Source of the DNA: a virus
DNA length: 64,000 nt
Strand: one strand, 5' to 3'
Virus record (IMG/VR): IMGVR_UViG_3300038393_002515
In this document: positions 20,741-55,028 of the stretch, in pieces
Numbering within the stretch: the stretch's first letter is position 1
Layout of the letters: each line of letters opens with the position of its first letter
Made by a program: the position numbers and the translations under genes
The notes under the pieces: generated by a model
The model's database searches: none
What the model was told of the DNA's origin: nothing
What the model saw: the letters and a program-made list of their open reading frames with translations, nothing else

Positions 20741-21400
20741 ATGTCCGGTACGACACCACGGCTGGGGCTGAAGACGTGGGATCAGTCCGATCCCTTCCTC
20801 CGCCAGGACTTCAACGACAACAACGGGCGCCTGGACGCCTATCCCGGTACCTACATCTGCACGTCTGGTTCCCGGCCCGCCTGGGGTGGCGCGCAGTCGG
20901 GCATGCGTATCTTCGAGACGGACACGCGGCGTGAGCTGATGTGGAACGGCACGGCGTGGCGGGAGCCTTTGGTCACGCCGCCGGTGTGGACGGGGTATAT
21001 CCAGCCCCAGGCCACGATGGGCAAGGACACGCACGTCTACTACAAGCTGGCGACGTTTCAGGTCAACCGGCCGGGTGCGCTTCTGGTGCACCTGGAGGTC
21101 GAGGTCACGGTCCAGTCTCTGTATACGGCGAACATGTCGGCGCGGCCGCAGGTGGATGGTGGTGACTGTCAGATCGGCAGTACGGCGTCGTACATGCGGG
21201 TGGCGCAGACGAACACTTCTGGCAGTGGTTGGCAGAGGCACTGGATGATGGGTGCGGTCGGCCTGCGTTCGGTTGGTGTGGGCTCGCACAACTTCGGTCT
21301 CCACTTCTACACGACGCCGACGTCGACCACGTCTTCGGTGTCGGTGATGCTGTCGTCGGTGCGTGGCTACGCAATGCTCGTCAACTCGCAGGACACCTGA
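20741..21400 (+). CDS. Minor tail/fibre-like protein
   Basis: N-terminus MSGTTPRLGLKTWDQSDPFLRQDFNDNNGRLD resembles the conserved N-terminal motif of actinophage minor tail proteins (from memory). Internal start in the listed ORF was chosen from the SD and repeat-element position. Confidence 0.6.
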   Translation: MSGTTPRLGLKTWDQSDPFLRQDFNDNNGRLDAYPGTYICTSGSRPAWGGAQSGMRIFETDTRRELMWNGTAWREPLVTPPVWTGYIQPQATMGKDTHVYYKLATFQVNRPGALLVHLEVEVTVQSLYTANMSARPQVDGGDCQIGSTASYMRVAQTNTSGSGWQRHWMMGAVGLRSVGVGSHNFGLHFYTTPTSTTSSVSVMLSSVRGYAMLVNSQDT

Positions 21401-22482: not shown

Positions 22483-23040
22483 ATGTACAGCGTCACCCTC
22501 AAGGCCGGTCTGGTCGACGTCGTCCTGCCCAACGGCAACCGCTACCAGGGCGGCGACACCGTCGCCCTGTCCGACACGCACTACGGCCAGATGTCGGCGG
22601 CCACACGTGCGGCCGTATTCGCCACCGCGCCTTCGCCCGCCTCCTCGGCCACGCAGGAGCTGTTCCGGGCAACCGGGCTGACCCTGAACGCCAGTTCAGA
22701 CATCGTGACAGCGAATACCGTCAACCAGGCCACGGGCAAGACCGGCGTGATCGATGTGTCGGCCGTCCAGAACGGCCTCCTCGTCGTCAGCGTGGCCTCC
22801 GTATCCGGCACCACCCCTGGTCTGGCAGTCTTCTTCGACTGCCAGGACGCCGCCGGGAACTGGGTGCAGACCTCCGCGCCAACGTCGATCGGCGGAGTCG
22901 TCCTGAACGCCTCCGGCTACACCTACGGCGTCATCAACAACGGCTACCGCCTCACGCACAAGGGCCGTATCCGCTGGACCGTCACCGGCACCGGCAGCCC
23001 CACGTTCAACGGCGTCACCTTCAGCCTGTTCGGCAGCTGA
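22483..23040 (+). CDS. Hypothetical virion protein
   Basis: 185-aa ORF, SD GGGAGA, tightly packed with its neighbours. Confidence 0.65.
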   Translation: MYSVTLKAGLVDVVLPNGNRYQGGDTVALSDTHYGQMSAATRAAVFATAPSPASSATQELFRATGLTLNASSDIVTANTVNQATGKTGVIDVSAVQNGLLVVSVASVSGTTPGLAVFFDCQDAAGNWVQTSAPTSIGGVVLNASGYTYGVINNGYRLTHKGRIRWTVTGTGSPTFNGVTFSLFGS

Positions 23041-23042
23041 CG

Positions 23043-23708
23043 ATGAGAACGACCCGAGGCACGTACGTACGGGCCCAGCAGAACTGGGCCGTCGACCAGG
23101 AACGCCAGCGGCACGATCAAGCCCTGTGGGCTCTTGGAGAGAGCACTCTGTTCTGCCTGCTCTGGACGGCCCGGGACTACGACAACGGGCTCGTCGGCCT
23201 GTGCACGGTGTGCGCGTCCGACCGCATCTCCAAGGCGTACGGGCAGCCGACCCGGAACAAGTGCCCGAACTGCTTCGGCACCCGCTTCGAGGGTGGCTAC
23301 CGGGCGCTCATCGTCCGCCCGGCCATCTTCACGGACGCCGACGACGGCCAGTCCTTCACCGCCCGGGGTGTCGTCTCGCCGCAGGAGGTCCATCTGGAGA
23401 CCACCAGCGACTTCCGCGTCCACGGCGGCGACTACGCTATGCGCGCCACCGGTGAGCGCCTGCAGCTGCGCACCCCGCAGCGCACCACGCTGCGCACCGG
23501 CTTCGGGACCCCGCACCAGCGCGACGTCGGCACGGCGTACAACCTGACCCGGGCGGCCGTCGAGGACGAGGACTCCGTGGCCTACACGATCCCGCCGAAC
23601 ACCACCGACCTCATCACCATCCTGTCCCGTTCTGGGTCAACTCCTCCCAGTTGGTCCGACGTGGAAGTAATTCGGGCTCCGCTGATTCCGCTGTACGAGC
23701 GAGACTGA
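23043..23708 (+). CDS. Hypothetical virion protein with a CxxC...CxxC zinc-ribbon
   Basis: LCTVCASDRISKAYGQPTRNKCPNCFG. Internal ATG 23043 is 2 nt after the upstream stop. Confidence 0.65.
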   Translation: MRTTRGTYVRAQQNWAVDQERQRHDQALWALGESTLFCLLWTARDYDNGLVGLCTVCASDRISKAYGQPTRNKCPNCFGTRFEGGYRALIVRPAIFTDADDGQSFTARGVVSPQEVHLETTSDFRVHGGDYAMRATGERLQLRTPQRTTLRTGFGTPHQRDVGTAYNLTRAAVEDEDSVAYTIPPNTTDLITILSRSGSTPPSWSDVEVIRAPLIPLYERD

Positions 23709-23741
23709 GCCCGCCACACCACCACACCAAGGGGTACCGCC

Positions 23742-24461
23742 ATGCCCGAGCCCACCTTCCGCGACGACGTCACCGTCGAGCTGGTCAAGCACACCGCGTC
23801 CGACGCCGATGTTCTCTTCGCCGCCCGGGTATCCACCGGTACACCCACTGCTCTCGAAGAGATCGGCGCTCTCACAGACCGCGACACCGGCCTCATCAAC
23901 TACCTGATGAGAGACCGTCATGGCAGCCCCTTCGAGCACAACTCGATGACGTTCTTCGTCAGCGCGCCGATCTTCGTGTTCCGCGAGTTCATGCGCCACA
24001 GGGTCGGGTTCTCCTACAACGAGGAGAGCGGGAGGTACCGCGAACTGCAGCCGGTCTTCTACGTGCCCGGGGAGGACCGCAAGCTCGTTCAGACCGGCAA
24101 GCCGGGTGCGTACACCTTCCTCCCCGGCCCGAAGAGCCTGCACGAGCAGGTGTACCGCGAGATGGCCGAGGCCTACGACCGGTCGTACGCGCACTACGTG
24201 AGCCTGCTGGGCAAGGGCGTCGCCCGCGAGGTCGCCCGCGCCGTCCTGCCGGTGGGTCTGTTCTCGTCGATGTACGTCACCTGCAACGCGCGCTCGCTGA
24301 TGCACTTCCTCGGCCTGCGCACGACCCACCCGGACGCCAAGGTGCCCTCGTTCCCGCAGCGTGAGATCGAGATGGTGGCCGAGCAGATGGAGGCCGCCTG
24401 GGCCGAGCTGATGCCGGTCACCTACGCCGCCTTCAACGCCAACGGCCGCGTCGCACCGTAG
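23742..24461 (+). CDS. thyX: FAD-dependent thymidylate synthase ThyX
   Basis: ThyX signature RHRVGFSYNEESGRYRE (RHRxxSxNExSxRY) plus the second conserved Arg-rich C-terminal block (ARSLMHFLGLRT). SD AAGGGG 7 nt before the ATG. Confidence 0.9.
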   Translation: MPEPTFRDDVTVELVKHTASDADVLFAARVSTGTPTALEEIGALTDRDTGLINYLMRDRHGSPFEHNSMTFFVSAPIFVFREFMRHRVGFSYNEESGRYRELQPVFYVPGEDRKLVQTGKPGAYTFLPGPKSLHEQVYREMAEAYDRSYAHYVSLLGKGVAREVARAVLPVGLFSSMYVTCNARSLMHFLGLRTTHPDAKVPSFPQREIEMVAEQMEAAWAELMPVTYAAFNANGRVAP

Positions 24462-24495
24462 CGCTCTGGATAAAAATTGGGTACGATCTGGATTC

Positions 24496-24828
24496 ATGAC
24501 GGATATCAAGCGTGTTCGTACGTCCAGTGGGGATGTAGTCGACGTCAAGGAACGCATCCGCGAGGGCGTGCCTGAAGGCGATGTTGGTGACGCGGTGGCC
24601 GAGGTGGCCGAGCTGCGTGGCAGGAGTGGCGACGTACAGCTGCACACCAAGCTCGTCCCGGATGCCAACCAGGCCCTCGTCGAGGCGATCGTCCGAAGCG
24701 GTCTCGGCAAGTCGGAAGCGGTCAACCGACTCATCATGATCGGTGGCTTCTTCGACAAGATGAAGAGGCAGGGCTACGACCTGCTGCTCAGCAAGGACGG
24801 CGCGACCGAGAAGGTCCACATCGTCTGA
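24496..24828 (+). CDS. Ribbon-helix-helix-like small protein
   Basis: Segment VQLHTKLVPDANQALVEAIVRSGLGKSEAVNRLIMIG fits the strand-helix-helix pattern of CopG/Arc-type proteins. Preceded by an AT-rich patch and has no repeat element. Confidence 0.55.
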   Translation: MTDIKRVRTSSGDVVDVKERIREGVPEGDVGDAVAEVAELRGRSGDVQLHTKLVPDANQALVEAIVRSGLGKSEAVNRLIMIGGFFDKMKRQGYDLLLSKDGATEKVHIV

Positions 24829-24844
24829 TCATCTGAGCCCTGCA

Positions 24845-24879
24845 CTGTCCGCGCCTCCTCCGCCGCCCTCAAGGGGTGA
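24845..24879 (+). promoter_or_regulatory. Bipartite late-gene element copy 10 (CTGTC-N23-GGGGTGA)
   Basis: GCGCCTCCTC 24851-24860 pairs perfectly with GAGGAGGCGC 24883-24892 (SD). Start GTG 24894 follows directly. Confidence 0.65.
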
Positions 24880-24893
24880 GCAGAGGAGGCGCC

Positions 24894-25565
24894 GTGCTTG
24901 TTTCGTTGGCCGCGTGGTGGACGACAGATCCCGATGAGTACCGCGAGTACGAGAACATGCACGACCCGGACTACCGGCTGCGCGACCCCAAGGAGACGCC
25001 GGTAGCCCGGCGCAACCGGTTCATCAAGCACGTCTCCGACGCCCATGGCGTGGATGAGAAGGCGGCCACCAACGCCCTCAAGCACGTCGTCACGCGCGGC
25101 CTCGGCGGCTTCGACGACCCGGAGAGCTACGGCTTCGCCAGCTCGGCGAACCAGATGACGCACTACTCCCACAGCACTCGCCAGAAGCTGATGGACCCGA
25201 AGACCTGGGCGGGCAAGAAGGAGGAGAGCATCCCCCTTCACCAGGAGATTCACGCCAGCCAGAACTTCATCCGGCCGGACTCCGTGGCGCACAACCTCTT
25301 CCACCCTGGCAAGCGCCAGGCATATGACCACGAGGCCGTTGGCGACCCGGACTACGACCCGAGCTGGGACGAGGACTCACACCGCGAAGAGGACGAAGGG
25401 TCGGAGTCCACGCCCGAGGAGCGCGCTCTGCATGGCACCGCGCGGTTCATGCGGCGCAACAGCGGTCGCCTGGAGGTCGTGGACGGGCATCACCGGGTCG
25501 CTGCCGACATGCTGCTCGGCAAGCCCCACACCAAGGGTGTGATCATCCACGAGCGGGACCTGTAA
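24894..25565 (+). CDS. ParB/sulfiredoxin-like nuclease-domain protein
   Basis: C-terminal LEVVDGHHRVAADMLLG (the DGxHR core of the ParB/Srx fold), preceded by IPLHQEIHASQNFIRPDSV. Start chosen at GTG 24894 after SD GAGGAGG. Confidence 0.65.
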   Translation: MLVSLAAWWTTDPDEYREYENMHDPDYRLRDPKETPVARRNRFIKHVSDAHGVDEKAATNALKHVVTRGLGGFDDPESYGFASSANQMTHYSHSTRQKLMDPKTWAGKKEESIPLHQEIHASQNFIRPDSVAHNLFHPGKRQAYDHEAVGDPDYDPSWDEDSHREEDEGSESTPEERALHGTARFMRRNSGRLEVVDGHHRVAADMLLGKPHTKGVIIHERDL

Positions 25566-26290
25566 TGCTGGTCGAGGTCCCGGAGGTCCACCTGGTCACC
25601 CATCCCGACCGCATGATCATGGTCGAGAAGGGGCTGTCGCCGAAGCGCGCCCGTGCCGCCGCGCTGGAGGCCGTACGACAGGCCCGGCGCCGGATGCCGA
25701 AGCTCACCGGCGCCGCCGCGCGCGGGCTGCAGCCGCTGTACGGCAAGGGGTACTTCGGGCTCTCCTGGGCCACCGAGGTCGTCTGGTACCAGGACCACGG
25801 CACCAAGCCGTTCACCATGCGCTCGCTGGCCGGGCGGGTCATCCCGATGTGGATCGACGACCCGACCGGCCAGGAGCGGCGCGACAACCCCAAGGCCAAG
25901 ACGCGCACCACGGAGTCCGGGAAGGTGCAGGTGCTGATCTTCCGGCGCGCGGCCCGCATCGGGGAGCGGAAGAAGGTCTACCGCAAGGACCCGAAGACGG
26001 GTCTGAAGGTGCTGGTCTCCGACACCCCGGCCCACTACCCGGGCGCGCCGGGCCGCATCGGCTGGCGTGAGGCCAAGCAGCCCTGGACCAGGCCGGGAAA
26101 GCGGCCGGGCGCCATCCACCCGGGCAACATCGGCGTCTGGTGGCGCCACCCGGGCCTGAAGCCCCGGAGTTTTTTGAACACGTCCATGACCCTCGCGGCG
26201 CAGAAGAACGGCCTGGTGGCCGAGCGGGTCTACGTCGCCGACCGGTCCTGGAGAAACAGCGTCCGCCTGCACGGCGAGGAGTTCCGGTAG
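25565..26290 (+). CDS. HK97 gp10-like head-tail/tail-completion protein with a basic insertion
   Basis: RRMPKLTGAAARGLQPLYGKGYFGLSWATEVVWYQDHGTKPF resembles the gp10-family core (aP..TG.L..S...yGT). TAATG overlap with the upstream gene. Confidence 0.5.
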   Translation: MLVEVPEVHLVTHPDRMIMVEKGLSPKRARAAALEAVRQARRRMPKLTGAAARGLQPLYGKGYFGLSWATEVVWYQDHGTKPFTMRSLAGRVIPMWIDDPTGQERRDNPKAKTRTTESGKVQVLIFRRAARIGERKKVYRKDPKTGLKVLVSDTPAHYPGAPGRIGWREAKQPWTRPGKRPGAIHPGNIGVWWRHPGLKPRSFLNTSMTLAAQKNGLVAERVYVADRSWRNSVRLHGEEFR

Positions 26291-26293
26291 GGA

Positions 26294-26328
26294 GCTGTCC
26301 GGCCCGCCTCTCGCACCCCAAGGGGTGA
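26294..26328 (+). promoter_or_regulatory. Bipartite late-gene element copy 11 (GCTGTC-N22-GGGGTGA)
   Basis: GCCCGCCTC 26302-26310 / GAGGAGGGC 26331-26339 (one mismatch) sequesters the SD of ATG 26344. Confidence 0.6.
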
Positions 26329-26343
26329 CGGAGGAGGGCTGCC

Positions 26344-27099
26344 ATGACCTTGGTGTGGTCGCAGATCATTCGGCTGAGCCAGTGGGGCGACGACTGGGCG
26401 CCGAAGGACAGCGACGAGGACGTCCACCCGGGCGAGATCGAGAGTCACCGGGGCAGCTGGGAGCTGAACCAGCATCATGTCAACCGGCTGGCCGACTCCA
26501 TCCGGCAGCACGGCTACAGCCCGGAGCGGCACGGCGTGCTGGGGTGGAACTTCCACCAGGGCGGCGAGAACGTCTACAACCACGCCTCGGGCACCGAGAC
26601 CGACCCCAACGACCACCTGCACCACGAGCATCTGCTGCAGGCGCTCAAGGACGTCGGGCACGGCCCGGTACGGGTGCACATCCACGATCAAGACTCGGAC
26701 GAGCGCGGCAACTCGCCTCGGTACTACCACGGCACCACGGTCGAGGATCTCAAAGAGGTCAAGCCCAACCACAGCACGCGGGGCTCCTTCGGGAACAACG
26801 GAGCGATCCACGAGCCGGGCTACGCCTACGCCACCAGCCGCGAGAACGCTGAGAGCTACGCCGAGAGCAAGGCCGAAATCCATGGCGGTCGCCCTCTCGT
26901 CTACCGCGTCTCGCCGCTGGGTCCGGTCGAGAAGGACCCTTCGCACGACGCGCAGGGGCGCAGCAGGGCTAACTACGAATCGGACGTCCGGTCCAAGCAC
27001 GGCTTCCAGGTCCTGGACCACGTCTGGTCCGGCGAGCACCCGGACGGCGACGAGGCATGGCACGACGATGAGGATGATTACGACGGCGGGTGGCACTGA
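26344..27099 (+). CDS. Fusion protein: N-terminal ParB-like segment plus C-terminal Arr-type (rifampin-ADP-ribosyltransferase-like) domain
   Basis: The C-terminal half YYHGTTVEDL...GYAYATSRENAESYAE...GRPLVYRVSPLGPVEKDPSH aligns by eye with the Arr core (FYHGT...YFSA...A.WGAE...IYIVEPTGPFEDDPN). The N-terminal NQHHVNRLADSIRQHGYSPE is ParB-N-like. Confidence 0.65.
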   Translation: MTLVWSQIIRLSQWGDDWAPKDSDEDVHPGEIESHRGSWELNQHHVNRLADSIRQHGYSPERHGVLGWNFHQGGENVYNHASGTETDPNDHLHHEHLLQALKDVGHGPVRVHIHDQDSDERGNSPRYYHGTTVEDLKEVKPNHSTRGSFGNNGAIHEPGYAYATSRENAESYAESKAEIHGGRPLVYRVSPLGPVEKDPSHDAQGRSRANYESDVRSKHGFQVLDHVWSGEHPDGDEAWHDDEDDYDGGWH

Positions 27100-27734
27100 T
27101 GTACATCACCCGGGTCAAGGCCCTCGCCATCGAGGCGCTGCAGGCGGTCTTCGACAGCCAGTATCCCGTGACGGAGTTCCGGGGTCTGCACTGCTCGCTG
27201 GAGTACCCGGTCGAGAAGTCGTCGTTCCCCGAGGTCTGGGTGCGCTACAACGACACCGGCCCGCTGCGGCGGGCGGGCGTCTCACACGTCGAGGACACCG
27301 ATCCGGGTGACGGTGGCCGGGTGCCGCCGTACACGCGTTTCCGGTTCGAGGGCTCCTGGGAGTTCGTTGTCGTCGCGCTGTCGAGCGTGGAGCGGGACCG
27401 GGTCTACGACGAGCTGGTCGCGACGATCGCCTTCTCCGGCTTCGATCCGTTGCGCAGCCGGTTCCGGTCGTACCTGGAGAACAACGACCTGATCGACCTG
27501 ACAATCCGGACGGACGAGATCGAGTCGACCGGCGAGTCGGCTGAGCCGGGCACGCCGTGGGGGACGGACGAGGTCGTCTACGAGCGGACGTTGGCCATCG
27601 ACCTGATCGGGGACTTCACGCCGGACCCGATGCAGGCCGGAGTGATCGTGCCTCTGTCGAAGATCGTGGTCACGCCGACCGCCGACCCCACCCTCGACGA
27701 CCTCAGCGACAGCGGCTTCGACTCCTGGCACTGA
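27099..27734 (+). CDS. Tail-completion/terminator-type protein (positional)
   Basis: 211 aa. TGATG overlap with the upstream gene. Last + strand gene before the sheath gene. Confidence 0.55.
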   Translation: MYITRVKALAIEALQAVFDSQYPVTEFRGLHCSLEYPVEKSSFPEVWVRYNDTGPLRRAGVSHVEDTDPGDGGRVPPYTRFRFEGSWEFVVVALSSVERDRVYDELVATIAFSGFDPLRSRFRSYLENNDLIDLTIRTDEIESTGESAEPGTPWGTDEVVYERTLAIDLIGDFTPDPMQAGVIVPLSKIVVTPTADPTLDDLSDSGFDSWH

Positions 27735-27736
27735 GA

Positions 27737-27982
27737 TCAGGACCCTAGCGATCCGCCTTCGTTCTCCCAGACCTCCACCATCGTCCTCCAGGAGGCTTCC
27801 TTGCGCCTTCGCTTCGAGCGGTTCAGAGTGTGCCACCAGCCACATACGCACTGGTAGGGCTTGTGGACGTCGCCGTCCCTCTCGTGTAGCTCCTGGCACT
27901 TCAGGAGAGCCAAGTCCTTGCTGAACTTCCGCTTCTTCGTCGGGCATGGAACGTACCGCCTGCGCCCACCTCTCCTCGCCAT
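27737..27982 (-). CDS. Small basic Cys/His-containing protein on the opposite strand
   Basis: 81 aa, Arg/Lys-rich, with C..(x)..C..H and YQCVCGWWH motifs (possible zinc-binding nucleic-acid binder). It is the only reverse-strand ORF wedged between the tail-completion and sheath genes. Third-position G/C is moderately high. Confidence 0.45.
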   Translation of the reverse strand: MARRGGRRRYVPCPTKKRKFSKDLALLKCQELHERDGDVHKPYQCVCGWWHTLNRSKRRRKEASWRTMVEVWENEGGSLGS

Positions 27983-28005
27983 GCCAGGACTCTAGCGATC
28001 CGCTC

Positions 28006-28039
28006 CTGTCCACCGCCGCCCCGTCAGCCCAAGGGGTGA
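28006..28039 (+). promoter_or_regulatory. Bipartite late-gene element copy 12 (CTGTC-N22-GGGGTGA)
   Basis: GTCAGC 28023-28028 / GCTGAC 28042-28047 places CCAAGGGGTGACA in a loop. Sheath ATG is at 28068. Confidence 0.6.
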
Positions 28040-28067
28040 CAGCTGACCGACGCGACTGGTGGGTGGC

Positions 28068-29594
28068 ATGCCCGACATCTCTTCTGCGACGTACACGCCG
28101 CCCGGCGTGTACGTCAGCGACGAATCGACTCCCACGGTCACCCCGCGCGGTGTGTCGACCACGACCGTCACGGTGATCGGCCCGGCCCTGGGCTACCAGA
28201 CGACCAGCGAGGTCGTCACCGTCAACTCCGCCTCGGCGACCGCGCTGTCGCAGCGCGGCGTGTACACCACGGCCGTCGTGGGCCCGCCTGCCATCGCGGC
28301 GCCCGTGGTCACGACCCTGTCGGGCACGGCCATGGTCTACAACACCGACTACACCTTCGTGGTGACCGCCGGTTCCGGCGGTGCGGCGACGGCGGTCACC
28401 TCGATCAAGCGGCTGTCGGCCAGCCAGAGTGACCTGACCCAGCCGTCGCCGAACGGTCTGAAGGACGGCGACCAGGTCCGGGTGACGTACGCGTTCACCA
28501 ACGCGACGTACTACGAGCCGACCGAGTTCGAGGACTACGACCAGATCGTGGCCACGTACGGGCAGGCGATGGTGACGACCGCGCCGACGAGCCCGACCGC
28601 GTCGCAGGTCGCCTCGGCGCTGACGCTGGCGGCGAAGATCGCCCTGGAGAACGGCGCGGCCAGCGTCCTGTGCGTCGCCACCAACCCGTCGGCCGGGGAC
28701 TACAGGGCGCAGCTGCAGGCGGCGTACAGCAAGCTGGAGGCGGACTACCGGGCGCAGATCCTGGTGCCGCTGTTCGTGGACGGTGCGTACAACGCGCACA
28801 CGCCGACGAACGTGGCGAACCTGCTGGCCGACGTCAAGAATCACTGCGAGACGGCGGCGGCCGACGGCTACGGGCGCCTGGCGTTCACCGGCCTGGCCAC
28901 GAACTACGACAACACGGTCGGTCACGACCAGCTGGCGCTGGCGCAGGCCAGCAAGCGGCTGGTGCTGTGTTACCCGAACCGGCTGTTGGCCTTCAACTCG
29001 GCTGTGAACGCCTCTACGGAGGTCGACGGCTTCTACCTGGCCGCCGCGATGGCCGGGCGTCTGGCGCGGAACGCGGTCGCGCGTGGGCTGACGAACCAGT
29101 CGCTGACGTCGTTCACCGGTCTGCCCGCGACGATCGCGCAGGCCATGACCCGGACCTTCCGTAACAACCTGTCGAAGTCCGGTGTGAACGTCGCGGAGAT
29201 CAACCAGAACGGCCAGCTGGTCGCCCGGCACGGCGTCTCGACGAACATGTCGTCGATCCTGACGCAGGAGATCTCGCTGACCCGGATCGGCGACGTCCTG
29301 CTGCAGATGATCCAGGTCGGCATGTCCAACGCCGGGCTGATCGGTGAGCCGATCACGGCCGAGACAACGATCAACGTGAAGTCGGCGCTGATCGGCCTGC
29401 TGGAGCAGGCGGTCTCCGACTCGATCATCGTCTCCTACGCGAACGCGCAGGTGCGGCAGCAGTCGGCGGACCCCTCGGTGATCGAGGGGACCTTCAGCTA
29501 CAAGCCCCCGATCCCGATGAACTACGTCGTCGTGAAGTTCGCCGTCGACCTGACAACCGGCGACACGACCACGGAGACGGACCAGAACGCCTGA
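28068..29594 (+). CDS. Tail sheath protein
   Basis: N-terminus MPDISSATYTPPGVYVSDE carries the PGVYV motif typical of contractile-tail sheath proteins. 508 aa, followed by the tube and chaperone genes. Confidence 0.85.
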   Translation: MPDISSATYTPPGVYVSDESTPTVTPRGVSTTTVTVIGPALGYQTTSEVVTVNSASATALSQRGVYTTAVVGPPAIAAPVVTTLSGTAMVYNTDYTFVVTAGSGGAATAVTSIKRLSASQSDLTQPSPNGLKDGDQVRVTYAFTNATYYEPTEFEDYDQIVATYGQAMVTTAPTSPTASQVASALTLAAKIALENGAASVLCVATNPSAGDYRAQLQAAYSKLEADYRAQILVPLFVDGAYNAHTPTNVANLLADVKNHCETAAADGYGRLAFTGLATNYDNTVGHDQLALAQASKRLVLCYPNRLLAFNSAVNASTEVDGFYLAAAMAGRLARNAVARGLTNQSLTSFTGLPATIAQAMTRTFRNNLSKSGVNVAEINQNGQLVARHGVSTNMSSILTQEISLTRIGDVLLQMIQVGMSNAGLIGEPITAETTINVKSALIGLLEQAVSDSIIVSYANAQVRQQSADPSVIEGTFSYKPPIPMNYVVVKFAVDLTTGDTTTETDQNA

Positions 29595-29640
29595 GCCCGC
29601 GCGACAGGCGCTGTGACGGGCCGCCTGCCGCGCTCTTGGA

Positions 29641-29670
29641 GGACCCCCGGTGTGAGGGCGCCGGGGGTCC
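29641..29670 (+). terminator. Terminator-like hairpin after the sheath gene
   Basis: GGACCCCCGG (29641-29650) / CCGGGGGTCC (29661-29670): 10-bp perfect stem, followed by TCTGCTGT. Confidence 0.65.
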
Positions 29671-29673
29671 TCT

Positions 29674-29709
29674 GCTGTCCGTGGTCGCCCTCCCCGCCGT
29701 AGGGGGTGA
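29674..29709 (+). promoter_or_regulatory. Bipartite late-gene element copy 13 (GCTGTC-N23-GGGGTGA)
   Basis: Begins 4 nt after hairpin 29641-29670. CCGTAGG 29697-29703 / CCTACGG 29712-29718. Tube ATG is at 29734. Confidence 0.6.
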
Positions 29710-29733
29710 GACCTACGGATGGGGTGGTGAGCA

Positions 29734-30237
29734 ATGCCTGCAGGCAAGGTCCGCGTCACCGGCTCCGGCTACAGCACGTTCGTGTACGCCGGTAAGCCGA
29801 TCGCGTTCCTCAACTCGGTGGAGGACTCCGGCCAGCGGGCGTGGAGCGACAAGGGGCAGGCGTACAGCTTCATCCAGCCCCTCGGCTCGCGCACGCCGGT
29901 GGAGATCGCGACCTCCCGCGTTCTGGGCGGCGGCACGCTGCAGCTGACGATCCAGGAGCTGTGGAACCAGGCGATCTGGGAGCAGCTGGCCGGTCTGGCC
30001 GGAACGAACAACATCGTCGAGATCTTCGACCGCCTGGCGCGGACGCCGAACTACGTCACCGCGCAGACGATCATCAAGCCGCCGGGCACCGAGGCAACCC
30101 CCTCGAAGTGGCGCGGCAAGATCTATCACAACGTCACCGTGGTCGACATCGCCGACGGCGACACCTTGACGGTCGGCGGCCTGGACGTCGCCAAGCCCGT
30201 GGTCTGCGCCTACACCCACACATCCCGACTGCGCTGA
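29734..30237 (+). CDS. Tail tube protein
   Basis: 167-aa ORF directly after the sheath gene and before the frameshifted chaperone pair. Confidence 0.7.
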   Translation: MPAGKVRVTGSGYSTFVYAGKPIAFLNSVEDSGQRAWSDKGQAYSFIQPLGSRTPVEIATSRVLGGGTLQLTIQELWNQAIWEQLAGLAGTNNIVEIFDRLARTPNYVTAQTIIKPPGTEATPSKWRGKIYHNVTVVDIADGDTLTVGGLDVAKPVVCAYTHTSRLR

Positions 30238-30251
30238 CCAGGAGCGACGCG

Positions 30252-30767
30252 ATGACGGACACCTACGGCACCTTCGACCCCGCCGACCGGCCGGGCCGTA
30301 AGGCCGCCATGCCGGAGGCCAAGCCGAGCCTGAAGGCCGAGGACGGCACGGAGCTGCCCGGCTTCGACCCGCGCTACACCGAGGCGTTCGAGGGGCTCGC
30401 TTTCCTGGGCTCGCTGACCGAGAGCTTCTCCTGGCTCGGGCACGAGTTCGTGATCCGCACCCTCGGCGTGGACGAGCAGCTCGCCGTCGCCCAGGTCACC
30501 GCCCGGTACAAAGACGGCGGCGAGCAACTCGCCTACGTCGCGGCCGTGGTGGCCATGTCGATCGTGACGGTCGACGGCGAGGAGCTGCCTACGCCGATCG
30601 GTGAGGACCAGCAGCTGGCGGAATGGGCGCACCGGCGGTTCGCCTACGTCAAGGCCAACTGGTTCCAGCCGACGATCAACGAGGTGTTCCAGCGCTACCT
30701 GAAGCTGGAGGACACGGTCGCCCAGGTCGTCGAGGCCATGGGAAAAGCGTTCGCCCCGGCCGCATAG
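30252..30767 (+). CDS. Tail assembly chaperone (G-like, zero-frame product)
   Basis: 171 aa, located between the tube and tape-measure genes. Has a slippery heptamer 21 nt before its stop. Confidence 0.8.
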   Translation: MTDTYGTFDPADRPGRKAAMPEAKPSLKAEDGTELPGFDPRYTEAFEGLAFLGSLTESFSWLGHEFVIRTLGVDEQLAVAQVTARYKDGGEQLAYVAAVVAMSIVTVDGEELPTPIGEDQQLAEWAHRRFAYVKANWFQPTINEVFQRYLKLEDTVAQVVEAMGKAFAPAA

Positions 30768-31180
30768 ATCCGTGGCTGGAGCGCCGTCTGCGGATCGCTG
30801 AGCGGCGGGGGCTGCTGTCGGGGCGGCACCTGTCTCGGGTGCAGGAGTTCGGCCTGGAGCTGCTCATCCTCGCCGACGGCTGGAAGGCGGCCGAGCAGGA
30901 CGAGAAGGCGTTCGAGGACCAGCTGAAGTTCGCCCTGGTGGCTGCGGGCGTGGACGCGCCCGATCTGTGGCCGAGGGACGCCGCCGACGTCCCGGACGAC
31001 GAGGACGTCGACTACGACTACTCCGCCGTCGACTGGCAGCAGGGGTCGACGGACGACTGGGAGCGCATGCAGCAGGCTCTCTCGGCCTCGCGGGTGCAGG
31101 TGTCCGGGGACCGGCAGGAGCCGGAGGACGAGCCGCCGGTGCCGGACATGGACGACGGATTCGATCGGGAGTGGCAGTAG
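30252..31180 (+). CDS. Tail assembly chaperone, -1 frameshift fusion product (G-T-like)
   Basis: After G_GGA_AAA (30740-30746) the -1 frame reads GKSVRPGRIDPWLERRL... and stays open to 31180, ending 1 nt before the tape-measure ATG. Confidence 0.7.
30740..30746 (+). other. -1 programmed ribosomal frameshift slippery site G_GGA_AAA
   Basis: Fits the X_XXY_YYZ pattern in the zero frame (atG GGA AAA Gcg). The canonical position is conserved in tailed phages between the tube and tape-measure genes. Confidence 0.7.
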
Positions 31181-38635: not shown

Positions 38636-39432
38636 CAGGCGGCCAGTCCCTTCATGAGGTGGCGGAACAGCAGGCCGAACTCTTCGAGGTGGCCTCGCTT
38701 CGGGGTGGTCTCCCAGGCGCGCGGGTAGTCCGGGGAACCGCTGATCTGGAACTCCTTCGGCACGACGGCTGCCTTAACCCGGGAGGGGTCCTCGGCTTTG
38801 ACGATGGCCTCCAGGACGGGGCGCTGCTCGTCGGCGAGCGTGTTGTTGCCGGAGCACTTCACCAGGAAGACCGAGACGGCGAGATCCGGGTTGGCCTTGG
38901 TGCCCTTGGCTGCCTGGCGGATCGACGCCTTGATGCGGGAGATCTCGAAGCCGGACGGGGCGACGGGGAGGATCACCATGTTGGCGACCTTGCACATCTC
39001 CCAGTACGTCTCCTTGCCTGCGCCGCCGATGTCGACGATGACGACCTGGTAGGACTTCTTGAGTTCCTCGATCACGTCGTCGAGGTCCGGTCCGTCTTCG
39101 TCCTTGGGGTCGTAGTTGACGAGGTCGAAGGGGACGTGCTCGGGGGCGGGGTTCCCCTCGTCGTCGACTCGGTTCTCGCGGATCCGGTACCAGTTGTCGA
39201 CCGTCTGGGAGTTGTCGTCGGTGTCGACCACCGCAACCTTCAGGCCGAGGAGGATGGACAGGTACAGCGCCAGGAAGATCGCGCTGGTCGTCTTGCCGGT
39301 GCCTCCCTTGAGGACGCCGATCCCGATGACGAGGCAGCCGTTCTCGTCGAGCCACGCGAAGATCTCCTCGCGCGACGCGGCCTGTGCCATCACCTTCTTG
39401 TGCTGTTGTCTGGGGAGCGTAGAAGTCTTCAC
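38635..39432 (-). CDS. parA: ParA/Soj-family partition ATPase
   Basis: Deviant Walker A VLKGGTGKTTSAIFLA, then VVDTDDNSQ and VIVDIGGAG boxes. Start placed at GTG 39432 (SD AGGAAGG 6 nt upstream); ATG 39390 is an alternative. The listed start 39552 would overlap the divergent gene. Confidence 0.8.
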   Translation of the reverse strand: MKTSTLPRQQHKKVMAQAASREEIFAWLDENGCLVIGIGVLKGGTGKTTSAIFLALYLSILLGLKVAVVDTDDNSQTVDNWYRIRENRVDDEGNPAPEHVPFDLVNYDPKDEDGPDLDDVIEELKKSYQVVIVDIGGAGKETYWEMCKVANMVILPVAPSGFEISRIKASIRQAAKGTKANPDLAVSVFLVKCSGNNTLADEQRPVLEAIVKAEDPSRVKAAVVPKEFQISGSPDYPRAWETTPKRGHLEEFGLLFRHLMKGLAA

Positions 39433-39504
39433 TCCGGGTCCCTTCCTAGGCGGTTGTCGCCCCACATCTTGCCGCACCGGCGTTGCCCGGGTGCGCAGGA
39501 CCCC

Positions 39505-39539
39505 GTGTTTCACCCCCGATTTGAAGCGGAAGGGGGTGA
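39505..39539 (+). promoter_or_regulatory. Bipartite late-gene element copy 15 (GTGTT-N23-GGGGTGA, degenerate 5' box)
   Basis: TCACCCCC 39510-39517 pairs with GGGGGTGA 39532-39539. SD GGAGGTGG and ATG 39551 follow. Confidence 0.45.
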
Positions 39540-39550
39540 GGAGGTGGCTC

Positions 39551-39979
39551 ATGAAGACGCTGGCTCTCGTCGGCGGTGACCTGGCACTGGGGGATGGCGG
39601 CTACCGGACGCTCACCGGCGCGGCCCGCATCCGGCAGGACCTGGCGCTCGCGCTCGCCGAGCCGTACGGCCACGACACCTACCACCCGCAGTTCGGGTCG
39701 GTGCTGGCCGCGCACATCGGTGAGCCGCTGACGCCGGAATTGGAGCTGCTGGTCCGCGCGGAGGTCGTGCGGGTGGTCCAGCAGTACGTGGACGGCCAGC
39801 AGGCTCAGATCGCAGCCGACGCCCTGTCCGGTTCCCGGTCACGGTTCAGCTTCCAGGATGTGGTGCAGTCGGTGCAGTCCATCAGTACGGACATCCAGTA
39901 CGACACGATCAAGGTGACCATCGCGCTGAAGACGCAGTCCGGCGGTACGGTCCGAGTGCTGCGGACGGTGAGCACCTGA
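39551..39979 (+). CDS. Baseplate wedge protein, gp25/GPW-like
   Basis: 142 aa. MKTLALVGGDLALGDGGY...IRQDLALAL...G...P.FGS pattern typical of the GPW/gp25 family. Precedes the J-like gene. Confidence 0.7.
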   Translation: MKTLALVGGDLALGDGGYRTLTGAARIRQDLALALAEPYGHDTYHPQFGSVLAAHIGEPLTPELELLVRAEVVRVVQQYVDGQQAQIAADALSGSRSRFSFQDVVQSVQSISTDIQYDTIKVTIALKTQSGGTVRVLRTVST

Positions 39980-53387: not shown

Positions 53388-55028
53388 ATGTTCGTCAAGA
53401 TCCCCAGAGGCCAGACCCCATGGGACGACTCGGTCAACAACGCCTTCACGGATCTGCAGAGCCAGATCACGGCGCTGCAGACCAAGTCGGGCAACCTGCC
53501 CTTCATCTCCGTGCTGGACTACGGCGCCAAGGGCGACGGCACCACGGACGACATGGCCGCCATCCAGTCGGCGCTCGACGCGGTGTTCACGGCGGGCGGC
53601 GGCACGGTGTACTTCCCGCCCGGCCGCACCTACGCCCTCAGCGACTACCTGCACATCCTGACCGGCACCACCGTCATCGCCTACGGGGCAACGATCAAGG
53701 GGATAGCCAACCGGGGCCTGGTCAAGCTGTACAAGGACTCTGACACGACGTTCACCGGGTACACCGGGCACTCCCGGATCCGCGTGTTCGGCGGCGTCTG
53801 GGACGCCAACGCGGCGGACGCAGGCGTCGGCACGGTGACTGCGATCGTGGACGCCTTCCTGCTGTCCCACAACAACGACGTCGTGTTCGAGCACGTCACC
53901 TTCCGAAACGTCTCCAGTGGCCACGCCCTCGACATAGTCGGCTCGCAGAACGTGCGCATCCTGGACTGCCGGTTCGAGGGGTTCAAGGACAACACCTCTG
54001 ACCAGTCCAGCAGCTTCCGCGAGGCCATCCAGGTCGACTTCGCCATCTCCGGCTCGGGCAGCAACGGCGCCTTCGACAACACCCCCTGCAAGAACATCCG
54101 CGTCCAGGGCTGCTGGTTCGGCGCCTCCGTCCGGCTGGGCGGCTTCGGCCGGGCCGTCGGCTCCCACACCAGCGCCAACGCCACCACCTGGGCCGACGGC
54201 ATCCAGATCCTCGGCAACAGGATCGAGGCCACGCTGCAGGAGGGCATCCGAGCCTACGCCTGGCGCAACGCCACCATCGCCGACAACAACATCTCCGGCA
54301 CCGGCCTGTCCGGCATCATGGTCACCGGCCCGGACCCGGCCGTCGCCGGATACGCCATCGCCTGCCAGAACATCTCCGTCCACGACAACACGGTCGCCGC
54401 CCCGGCCTCCGCCTCCGCCAGCCCGATCCGCGTGATCGGCTTCGCCACCGCCCGGCCCACTGGCGTGACGATCACGAAGAACACGGTCTCCGGCTCGCTG
54501 TCGACCGGCATCTACGTCTCGCAGGCCGACACCCCCCAGATCTCCGTCAACCGGGTCCTGGCGTGCACGACGTCCAGCATCTACGCGATCACCTGCGTGT
54601 CCCCGGCCATCACCGGCAACCACGTCAACAGCGCGGGCGGGGCCAGCATCGGCGCCGACACCTGCACCGGAGGCCACGTCTCCGCCAACAACGTCGAGAA
54701 CGCAGGCGGCCACGGGATCCTCGTGACGGCCGGGTCGGACGTCATGGTCTCCGCCAACCGGGTCTACGCCGCGAACAACTCCGGCATCCGCGCAACCACC
54801 AGCACCGCGCGGGCCCGGATCATGGGCAACACGATCATCCGGGGTGGGACCACCGACATCGGCCTGGACGTCACGGCGTCCGCCACCGACTGCCTGATCG
54901 TGAACAACGACCTCACCGGCGGCGGCTGGACGGCTGCCGGAGCGCAGGCGTACAACCTGGTCGGCACCCGCCAGATCACCGACTTTGCCGGGGGCTCCGC
55001 CGTCCCGGGCCAGAACATCGCCAACTGA
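53388..55028 (+). CDS. Beta-helix tailspike/depolymerase (pectate-lyase superfamily)
   Basis: YGAKGDGTTDDMAAIQSALDAV...GGGTVYFPPG N-cap signature. Repeated N-I-x-I/V beta-helix rungs (NVRILDCRF, NIRVQGCWF, NISVHDN...). Confidence 0.8.
   Translation: MFVKIPRGQTPWDDSVNNAFTDLQSQITALQTKSGNLPFISVLDYGAKGDGTTDDMAAIQSALDAVFTAGGGTVYFPPGRTYALSDYLHILTGTTVIAYGATIKGIANRGLVKLYKDSDTTFTGYTGHSRIRVFGGVWDANAADAGVGTVTAIVDAFLLSHNNDVVFEHVTFRNVSSGHALDIVGSQNVRILDCRFEGFKDNTSDQSSSFREAIQVDFAISGSGSNGAFDNTPCKNIRVQGCWFGASVRLGGFGRAVGSHTSANATTWADGIQILGNRIEATLQEGIRAYAWRNATIADNNISGTGLSGIMVTGPDPAVAGYAIACQNISVHDNTVAAPASASASPIRVIGFATARPTGVTITKNTVSGSLSTGIYVSQADTPQISVNRVLACTTSSIYAITCVSPAITGNHVNSAGGASIGADTCTGGHVSANNVENAGGHGILVTAGSDVMVSANRVYAANNSGIRATTSTARARIMGNTIIRGGTTDIGLDVTASATDCLIVNNDLTGGGWTAAGAQAYNLVGTRQITDFAGGSAVPGQNIAN

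Follow-up and report, generated by a model that had tools for sequence, protein, structure and literature searches.

A gene at positions 26344-27099 (plus strand) of the viral record IMGVR_UViG_3300038393_002515, analysed here as a stretch of 64,000 nucleotides (the window), encodes a 251-residue protein in which an N-terminal domain with a predicted ParB/sulfiredoxin (Srx)-like fold is followed by an Arr-type ADP-ribosyltransferase (ART) domain. The gene lies among the head and tail genes. Judged from its sequence, the protein is not a bona fide rifampin-modifying Arr. With moderate confidence, we interpret it as an effector that is made late, is probably delivered with the virion and would ADP-ribosylate a host macromolecule.

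A conserved two-domain gene

The open reading frame (ORF) is a real, conserved gene with two domains. The GC contents of its codon positions (GC1 0.69, GC2 0.42, GC3 0.90) are typical of a high-GC actinomycete coding sequence. A search of a collection of 5.8 billion proteins returned 43 homologues of 230-266 residues that share 47-63% identity with the window protein. All 43 carry a precomputed PF12120 match, and several are named 'NAD(+)--rifampin ADP-ribosyltransferase' by NCBI, the sources being Streptomyces and Kitasatospora assemblies. In a tblastn search of the 251-residue protein against the INPHARED phages and the PLSDB plasmids no match was found, and megablast of the 7-kb region recovered only ThyX fragments, in unrelated Streptomyces phages. 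Isolated phages and curated plasmid records therefore provide no annotation for the gene. Its features and those of its product are:

26344..27099, plus strand: coding sequence, 251 residues, predicted ParB/Srx-like domain plus Arr-like ADP-ribosyltransferase; ATG start, stop overlapping the start of the next gene (TGATG)
26344..26388, plus strand: N-terminal leader (MTLVW..., residues 1-15); M1, L3 and W5 are kept even in standalone ART relatives; low-confidence model
26401..26691, plus strand: ParB/Srx-fold domain, residues ~20-116, from structure prediction
26716..27039, plus strand: putative Arr-like H-Y-D mono-ADP-ribosyltransferase domain, residues ~125-232; H129 at 26728-26730, Y162 at 26827-26829, D198 at 26935-26937
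27040..27096, plus strand: acidic tail with His and Trp, residues 233-251; modelled as disordered and standing in place of the C-terminal helix of Arr

The whole protein has a net charge of -23 and contains 25 histidines; the net charge of the N-domain is -13. The tail, which the first-pass annotation of this DNA had singled out as rich in His and Asp, is indeed acidic (net -9) and rich in histidine. Its W239 aligns with the conserved tryptophan of Arr and with the tryptophan of a PEDW motif found in the phage clade. The full-length AlphaFold (AF2) model has a mean pLDDT of 80.6.

The C-terminal ADP-ribosyltransferase domain

The C-terminal domain, as modelled, is of the Arr-type fold, in agreement with the first-pass assignment. 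Residues 127-227 align with positions 1-96 of the 99 in the Pfam profile Arr-ms (PF12120) at E=2.5e-4 and 21.6 bits, slightly below the Pfam gathering score of 25 bits. All 19 aligned relatives are matched by the same profile (best E=1.8e-8), and more distant members of the clade reach 30-123 bits. Since a search of the PDB with the single sequence gave chance matches only, a family profile was used instead, and it matched the Arr structure 2HW2 at E=0.0024. When the full AF2 model was searched with Foldseek, the best three matches were the Arr structures 2hw2, 9iaf and 9iba (E=1e-5 to 4e-4, probability 1.00); a viral model named 'Ms Rifampin ADP-ribosyl transferase' was also among the structure matches.

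The HGT, aromatic-SA/TA and VY.V.P.GP.E.DP blocks that had been recognised by eye are real and conserved in an alignment of 19 family sequences (A1). Invariant residues are H129 and G130 in the YYHGT block, A161, Y162, A163 and T164 in the YAYAT block (residues 160-164), and R216, S217, H219, G220 and F221 in the RSKHGF block (RS.HGF, 216-221). The VY.V.P.GP.E.DP pattern covers residues 186-199, the VYRVSPLGPVEKDP block, in which V186, Y187, V189, P191, G193, P194, E196, D198 and P199 do not vary. A regular expression for the motif string matches 43 of the 43 homologues. In the HMM alignment H129, Y162 and D198, the catalytic positions, correspond to H19, Y49 and D84 of Arr-ms, and R216 to the invariant arginine of Arr. 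H19 and Y49 are residues of the NAD+ site and D84 is catalytic (PMC8492726). The H-Y-D positions and the HGT motif are common to three bona fide Arr sequences. Taken together, the Arr-ms, PDB-profile and Foldseek matches and the conserved catalytic residues give good support for an ART domain of the Arr type that is probably active. To go by these residues, it probably works as an NAD+-dependent mono-ADP-ribosyltransferase of the H-Y-D type.

Differences from rifampin-modifying Arr

The window protein has in common with Arr (2HW2, Arr-2/Arr-3; PF12120, NF033144) the fold, the H-Y-D positions, the conserved Arg and Trp, and the motifs HGT, A..AE and V.V.P.G..E.DP. However, identity between them is only ~23-26%, and the window protein adds the N-terminal ParB/Srx-like domain and the acidic tail. 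Arr is a standalone chromosomal or integron gene, whereas the window gene is found within a phage virion module. With NF033144, the Arr equivalog model of NCBIfam, whose cut-off is 130 bits, the window protein scores 18.6 bits, and its relatives P0002 and P0042 score 29.6-32 bits.

A further alignment (A3) contained three bona fide Arr proteins, namely the arr product of a Mycobacterium ulcerans plasmid, Arr-2 and Arr-3. Its common core consists of HGT, A..AE, V, E.DP, R and one Trp. Proteins of the phage clade end at or just after this Trp, typically with ...MPEHMGxPEDW, but Arr runs for ~28 residues past it and forms a C-terminal helix that is absent across the whole phage clade. This helix carries the second rifampin (RIF)-binding site, RIF site 2, at approximately residues 126-133 of the Arr alignment (PMC8492726). 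The region of RIF site 1 reads SHDAQGRSRANYESDVRS in the window protein and NVTDKKLPGNPTRSYRT in Arr. The low equivalog score and the missing helix are the reasons for which the protein is not considered a rifampin Arr. With the drug-binding end of Arr missing, a weapon against a host molecule is therefore likelier than an antibiotic-resistance gene.

The N-terminal ParB/sulfiredoxin-like domain

In the Foldseek search of the full model the matches that followed Arr were sulfiredoxin, ParB and PadC. When modelled alone from a broader alignment (pLDDT 85), the N-domain had 22 top PDB matches that all belong to the ParB/Srx superfamily (Srx, ParB, PadC, pNOB8 ParB-N, Atu1540), with query-normalised TM-scores (TMq) of 0.39-0.50 and a probability of at least 0.9 in 19 of the 22. 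Unrelated folds were found only below these, with probabilities of at most 0.1. Many phage models labelled 'ParB/Sulfiredoxin' match the domain as well. The Srx/ParB-N superfamily (1XW4, 3CYI, 6SDK, 6RYK) is thus the sole source of confident fold matches, and the predicted topology (strand, helix, two strands, helix, strand) is shared with it.

At the sequence level, searches for a Pfam ParB or ParBc domain gave no match at E<0.1 in any of the 19 members. The sole PDB profile match of the N-domain was the ParB-family protein Noc (7nfu), which at E=0.43 is not significant; its two aligned segments, the ParB box-I-like LADSIRQHGYSP and LLQALKDVGHGPVRVHI, are collinear with the expected ParB positions. 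Unlike ParB and Srx, the N-domain has neither a GxxR nor a GCHR motif, is without helix-turn-helix (HTH) and dimerisation domains, and is acidic. At the site of GxxR/GERR in ParB or GCHR in Srx, the family reads [AS]-G-[ST]-E-x-[DH]-P and then carries a His-rich insertion of 8-10 residues, and no Arg is conserved there. Only G57, Y58, P60, H63, G64, A100, L101, H106 and V109 are invariant across subfamilies.

Going by its model, the N-domain is a degenerate ParB/Srx-fold module. It had initially been described as resembling the N-terminal, DNA/NTP-binding segment of ParB. The ParB-like fold holds up in the Foldseek comparisons, but with the arginine motif absent, no Pfam match and a net charge of -13, a DNA- or NTP-binding ParB domain is not accepted. 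Because the arginine motif needed for nucleotide binding or nuclease activity was lost, a role in targeting, partner binding or regulation is more probable. That the N-domain might be a paralogue of the DGHHR ParB-like protein encoded nearby was considered and rejected (hhalign probability 0.1).

A leader of the form M[ST]L[LV]W and the C-terminal ...MPEHMGxPEDW end are characteristic of the phage-borne Arr-like clade (P0058, P0063, P0109, P0117 and others). The leader is present in relatives with the ParB/Srx fusion and in some standalone ones; Arr-2 and Arr-3 begin with MVKDW. In the fused forms the ParB/Srx-like domain therefore looks as if it had been inserted between the leader and the ART core. 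The idea that the leader is a capsid-targeting signal was rejected, as no other ORF of the window begins with M[ST]L[LV]W.

Aberrant forms of the gene were also observed. P0147 (94 residues) and P0154 (33 residues) matched the leader region only and are truncated derivatives of the same gene; in P0147 a large internal deletion joins the leader and the beginning of the N-domain straight to the ...VRSKHGF... end. P0100 is a metagenomic variant, a fragment with two ARTs in tandem. The forms of P0147 and P0100 indicate that the gene frequently decays and rearranges.

The wider phage-borne clade

A word-index search with the ART domain alone returned a single protein (P0044), and an exhaustive profile search of 1.84 billion representatives was therefore used, which yielded 207 proteins. 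The N-domain is present in only ~9 of these. In the remainder the ART domain stands alone (100-170 residues), is combined with GNAT, occurs in two or three copies or is part of proteins of 1000-3178 residues. One member of the clade consists of three ART domains, NUDIX and a 2H phosphoesterase. On a 47-kb IMG/VR contig (locus L021, 4822-12330, plus strand, open at the end of the locus) the ART domain lies in a frame of more than 2500 codons, which also contains an HExxH motif (HEWGH, zincin-type), long low-complexity linkers and tape-measure PHROG matches. This frame is an ART-bearing tape-measure or polyvalent protein. In locus L022 a canonical DGHHR ParB-like gene overlaps at its end with the gene of a standalone ART of 124 residues, which is followed by a gene for an Ig-domain major tail protein.

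These architectures match the polyvalent, virion-injected proteins described by Iyer et al. 2017 (PMC5512222). The ARTs of such proteins (Tox-ART-HYD2 / ART-PolyVal PF18760, PMC5512222) resemble the window ART in the H-Y-D site and in the late-gene context within phages, and relatives of the window ART are found in giant or tape-measure proteins with GNAT, NUDIX, 2H and zincin-type domains. ParB-superfamily domains are likewise a known component of polyvalent proteins. The window protein differs from them in being a two-domain protein of 251 residues without a peptidase or MuF module, and it fits Pfam Arr-ms better than ART-PolyVal (E 2.5e-4 vs 0.016). DdrB-like ParB domains have a conserved active-site arginine, which the window N-domain lacks. 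The architectures of the clade also agree with a report that phage ARTs, above all those of myoviruses, frequently have their genes among those for morphogenesis and are probably packaged (PMC9503650). The contexts found for this clade point elsewhere than to small-molecule resistance.

Position in the virion module and evolution of the gene

The location of the ART gene inside the virion module, as proposed in the first-pass annotation, is clear from the surrounding genes:

start 16987: major head protein, virion module
start 19623: fn3 decoration-type protein, virion module
23742-24461, plus strand: ThyX thymidylate synthase (Pfam Thy1, E=1.3e-48)
24876..25565, plus strand: ParB-like protein with the motif VVDGHHRVAA; a separate gene, whose homologues immediately precede the ART gene in other relatives and in the distant phage locus L022
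25565..26290, plus strand: gp116-like gene (phrog_2819), orthologue in Myrnavirus; virion module, directly upstream of the ART gene in the window
27099..27734, plus strand: gp117-like gene (phrog_2748), orthologue in Myrnavirus; virion module, directly upstream of the sheath block
start 28059: sheath, virion module
start 29734: tube-type structural protein, virion module
start 34949: structural protein of the virion that has lysozyme/tape-measure-like matches plus an NlpC/P60 domain, virion module
among the 40 window ORFs scanned: Baseplate J

The window sheath is ~29% identical to the sheaths of Mycobacterium phages of the genera Myrnavirus and Bixzunavirus (155-165 kb). The region is collinear with the genome of the Myrnavirus ScoobyDoobyDoo: the genes at 21229, 22254, 25565 and 27090 correspond to gp113, gp115, gp116 and gp117, followed by the sheath (gp118) and the tube (gp119). 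The flanking genes of the ART gene had been labelled 'gp10-like' and 'tail-completion-type'. These labels found no confirmation, and the flanks are orthologues of the hypothetical Myrnavirus proteins gp116 and gp117, members of PHROG families with no function attached. In ScoobyDoobyDoo gp116 and gp117 are adjacent, and the ART gene is absent from the Myrnavirus module. Because the two genes are neighbours there, the ART gene is a lineage-specific insertion. The block formed by ThyX, a 110-residue ORF and the ParB-like ORF (23742-25565) is likewise a lineage-specific insertion. ThyX itself lies within the string of head-tail genes, between the gp115 and gp116 orthologues, an odd place for a gene of nucleotide metabolism.

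The loci of 16 relatives were compared. Ten have the gene order of the window (ThyX, gp116-like, ART, gp117-like, sheath) and six have another order, in which one or two copies of the ParB-like gene are followed by ART, gp116-like, gp117-like and sheath. The ART shares 48-64% identity with its counterparts there. Across the ten loci that have the window's order, identity is 76-92% for the gp116-like protein, 53-80% for the gp117-like protein and 65-84% for the sheath, and the ART is less conserved than the gp116-like protein and the sheath in all ten and less than the gp117-like protein in nine of ten. In the six loci with the other order, conservation of the ART is not below that of its neighbours. 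From these comparisons of position and identity, the ART gene is mobile within the module and is its fastest-evolving member among the closer relatives. Such fast evolution is as expected for a gene involved in conflict.

The ParB-like family with the invariant motif DGHH.V.A was also found repeatedly next to the Arr-like ART gene, at times as two tandem copies. Its members are encoded at 24876-25565 (plus strand) in the window, and at 5381-5983 in L013, 4868-5506 in L015, 4259-5515 in L018, 4682-5938 in L019 and 736-1284 in L022. The top PDB profile matches of this family are ParB 4umk, SbnI and a serine kinase. The two genes appear to be functionally linked.

A recurring hairpin element before late genes

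The 53-nucleotide spacer 5' of the ART gene folds into a GC-rich hairpin at 26301-26339 (minimum free energy (MFE) -34.2 kcal/mol, z -2.2). It is part of an element that recurs in the late module:

26295..26339, plus strand: copy of the recurring late-module element, with CTGT at 26295-26298, a variable 5' arm, the apex CCAAGGGGTGAC at 26318-26329 and a 3' arm
26330-26338, plus strand: Shine-Dalgarno sequence (SD) GGAGGAGGG, within the 3' arm of the hairpin 26301-26339

Exact or near-exact repeats of the 39-nucleotide hairpin were looked for and none were found. What recurs is the 9-mer CAAGGGGTG, which occurs eight times in the window against an expected 0.66, every time on the plus strand and upstream of a gene, together with a CTGT placed 20-22 nucleotides upstream (CTGT-N20-22-CAAGGGGTG). 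A late-gene element upstream of the ART gene, as suggested in the first reading of the DNA, is thus corroborated. The pattern CTGT-N20-22-CAAGGGG[TC]G has 11 copies in the window, all on the plus strand (3922, 4910, 11993, 18869, 20682, 24845, 26295, 28006, 34904, 40174 and 43699), and 38 distinct copies when relatives are included; no reverse-strand match was reported. The relatives concerned are L001, L006-L009, L011, L014, L017 and L020. In its general form CTGT(C/T)CG is followed by a 5' arm that varies, then by the conserved apex CCYCAAGGGGTGA and a complementary 3' arm, which is often purine-rich with an SD and ends 3-30 nucleotides before the start codon. The arms vary in sequence between copies yet stay complementary, i.e. 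they co-vary. RNAalifold recovered only an apical stem of 3-6 base pairs from the set of copies, and as the long arms pair in different registers, copies were folded individually. In 31 of 38 the apex of the hairpin of lowest energy coincides with the conserved motif, and in 20 of 38 z is below -2.

In the window the element precedes the ART gene, the sheath gene and other virion genes, and in relatives it precedes the gp116-like, gp117-like and sheath genes. In ten of the 16 relatives' loci the start of the ART gene overlaps the stop of the gp116-like gene (ATGA or GTGA) and the element stands before the gp116-like gene. From these stop/start overlaps, the ART gene always belongs to a late unit headed by the element, but has the element directly before it only in the window's lineage. 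The SD-containing element had been described as the gene's own, which is true of that lineage and does not extend to these ten loci. Rfam had no match in the window or at the hairpin, and a scan of 23000-31000 for a sigma-70 consensus found no promoter. Candidate roles for the element are those of a late promoter or operator, a site of RNA processing and a translational operator.

Proposed role and alternative explanations

In the interpretation that we favour, the ART gene would be transcribed together with the head-tail genes from units headed by the hairpin element, and its translation would be coupled to that of the adjoining structural genes. The enzyme would be made late and at least part of it would be carried in the virion. 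In the next infection it would ADP-ribosylate a host macromolecule, with the N-domain possibly serving for targeting, partner binding or regulation, and the host would be redirected or its defence disabled. Since the enzyme and its ParB/Srx-like module are strongly acidic and carry no nucleotide- or DNA-binding arginines, the target is most likely a protein. The proposed logic is that of T4 Alt, which is packaged in the head, and of the anti-CRISPR AcrIF11, phage mono-ARTs that modify host proteins for takeover or for disarming defence; the gene for Alt is grouped with late genes and its product is injected (PMC5512222, PMC9503650, PMC12421852). Unlike the window protein, Alt belongs to the unrelated R-S-E clade, and neither Alt nor AcrIF11 has a ParB/Srx domain or a sequence relationship to it. 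Their function is proven, whereas that of the window protein is one we infer. A takeover or counter-defence effector, which was among the roles named in the first-pass annotation, fits the evidence.

Several points weigh against this interpretation. To our knowledge rifamycins are the only established substrates of the Arr family. The activity, the late timing, the packaging and the target are things we infer. Neither a MuF nor a portal nor any other known packaging domain is present in the window protein, it has no domain of a virion component, and no capsid-targeting sequence was recognised in it. ThyX is encoded in the same structural block, so position alone is no proof of packaging. The link between the clade and polyvalent proteins is drawn from relatives whose ART domain is only 36-39% identical, and the ParB/Srx assignment comes from predicted structure with TM-scores of about 0.45-0.5 and holds at the fold level only. 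In addition, phage Arr-family ARTs have been filed under small-molecule resistance (PMC9503650).

If that classification applied here, the enzyme would detoxify a rifamycin or other ansamycin, or another diffusible actinomycete metabolite, and would shield the host RNA polymerase or the phage in the manner of Arr. Such compounds are abundant in Streptomyces habitats. Arr is the nearest characterised family by sequence and structure, the residues of the NAD site and of catalysis are conserved, homologues bear the rifampin name at NCBI, and phage members of the Arr family have been read as enzymes that modify antibiotics or else diffusible anti-phage compounds (PMC9503650). However, a score of 18.6 against the required 130 bits, the clade-wide absence of the RIF site 2 helix and the different RIF site 1 region all disfavour the rifamycin option raised at the outset, and a resistance enzyme would have no obvious reason to be embedded in tape-measure or polyvalent proteins or to be fused to a ParB/Srx-like domain. 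We consider detoxification quite unlikely. Nucleic acids as the target of ADP-ribosylation are also unlikely. Here the ParB/Srx-like domain would bring the ART to the ends or bases of DNA or RNA, where the modification would mark phage DNA against restriction or else damage the nucleic acid of the host. ParB-fold domains are often fused to DNA-modifying enzymes, e.g. in ParB-methylases (PMC5512222), the ART gene is repeatedly found beside a canonical DGHHR ParB-like gene, and the clade contains the protein with three ARTs, NUDIX and 2H phosphoesterase. Other H-Y-[EDQ] ARTs, e.g. DarT and Tpt1/KptA, act on nucleic acids (PMC9967889). The argument from the ParB fusion to a nucleic-acid target is nevertheless weakened by the N-domain itself, which has no GxxR/GERR arginines and carries a negative charge that is unusual for a nucleic-acid binder and argues against direct binding of DNA. 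The hhalign comparison also separates it from the DGHHR family, and a reversing hydrolase (Macro, NADAR) was not found in the window.

It is very improbable that the gene is a toxin module for plasmid addiction or abortive exclusion, in which the ART would be restrained by the ParB/Srx-like domain or by the ParB-like neighbour and would act during plasmid carriage. Relatives were deposited or assemble as plasmid-sized replicons of ~151-160 kb, the window encodes a ParA/MipZ-type ATPase, the ParB-like and ART genes overlap in L022 like a two-gene cassette, and many bacterial ARTs are toxins of toxin-antitoxin systems (PMC9967889). Against this, the gene is placed in a late structural operon, shares the type of its upstream element with the sheath gene and shows coupling to structural genes. 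Nor is a known antitoxin-type hydrolase encoded nearby: none of the 40 window ORFs was found to be a Macro, NADAR, ARH or NUDIX partner. The PADLOC defence models had no match for the window protein, the ParB-like neighbour or two standalone relatives. Least credible is a non-catalytic accessory in which the ART fold was exapted for joining heads and tails. The position between conserved genes for head and tail, with translational coupling to them, would suit it, but the H-Y-D triad and the NAD-site motifs are invariant in A1 and the motif string is present in every homologue. Furthermore, the gene is missing from the Myrnavirus module, changes position between relatives and evolves faster than its neighbours in loci with the window's gene order.

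A bolder form of the virion-delivered effector is that the phage-borne Arr-like clade as a whole is a distinct family of virion-delivered ADP-ribosyltransferases misnamed as rifampin resistance, in which the arginine-less Srx-like domain recruits a new class of substrate. The marks of such a family would be the MSLLW leader, the C-terminal PEDW end and the lack of the rifampin-site helix. We regard this as speculative and unlikely. If it were true, the substrate could be a protein of host defence or transcription, or else a nucleotide or the end of a nucleic acid, and the mechanism would be an undescribed form of counter-defence or takeover in Streptomyces phage-plasmids.

Phage ARTs in morphogenesis modules, H-Y-D ARTs and ParB-superfamily domains in polyvalent proteins, and Arr-family genes in actinophages have already been described (PMC5512222, PMC9503650). 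What goes beyond these reports is the compact ParB/Srx-like plus Arr-like architecture, the helix-less phage-borne Arr-like clade that reaches into tape-measure proteins, and the systematic naming of that clade as rifampin resistance. Virome surveys count such matches as phage-borne resistance genes (e.g. PMC10227523, PMC10469157). Because of the sub-threshold scores, the loss of one RIF site and the tape-measure and polyvalent contexts, a sizeable group of 'phage arr genes' may not be resistance genes. If the window protein is an injected effector, it would offer a tractable two-domain model of 251 residues for the ART domains of polyvalent proteins. Fusion to an ART would give the ParB/Srx fold a new functional context. 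The conserved hairpin that heads late units in this phage group is a testable regulatory feature.

Other features of the phage-like element

The phage-like element that carries the gene appears to be a plasmid-maintained, Myrnavirus-like myovirus of Streptomyces of ~155 kb (a phage-plasmid). One relative (L006, NZ_CP191269.1) is deposited as 'Streptomyces sp. cg35 plasmid pRLB1-9.1, complete sequence' with 151,251 bp, and isolate genomes and IMG/VR contain many more as contigs of 151-160 kb. The longest contig with the exact protein has 309,833 bp, ~2x the unit. Positions 38638-39552 (minus strand) of the window encode the ParA/MipZ-type ATPase, which has the Walker motif KGGxGK[ST].

Between the gp117-like and sheath genes, an ORF at 27737-27982 (minus strand) encodes a basic protein of 81 residues with Cys and His (…CPTKKRKF…CQELH…YQCVCGWWH…). 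It is the sole reverse-strand ORF in this part of the module and is called as a gene in L002; tblastn did not find it in relatives other than L002.

A 78-nucleotide repeat is present in three copies on the plus strand (1719-1796, 2859-2936 and 53495-53572) and encodes a pectate-lyase/beta-helix start of the DYGAKGDGTTDDTAAIQAA type. The Pfam domains Pect-lyase_RHGA_epim and Beta_helix each match two window ORFs, and YadA-head repeats and a poly-gamma-glutamate hydrolase are also found among the ORFs. The pectate-lyase/beta-helix, YadA-head and poly-gamma-glutamate hydrolase ORFs are probably tail-fibre or depolymerase genes.

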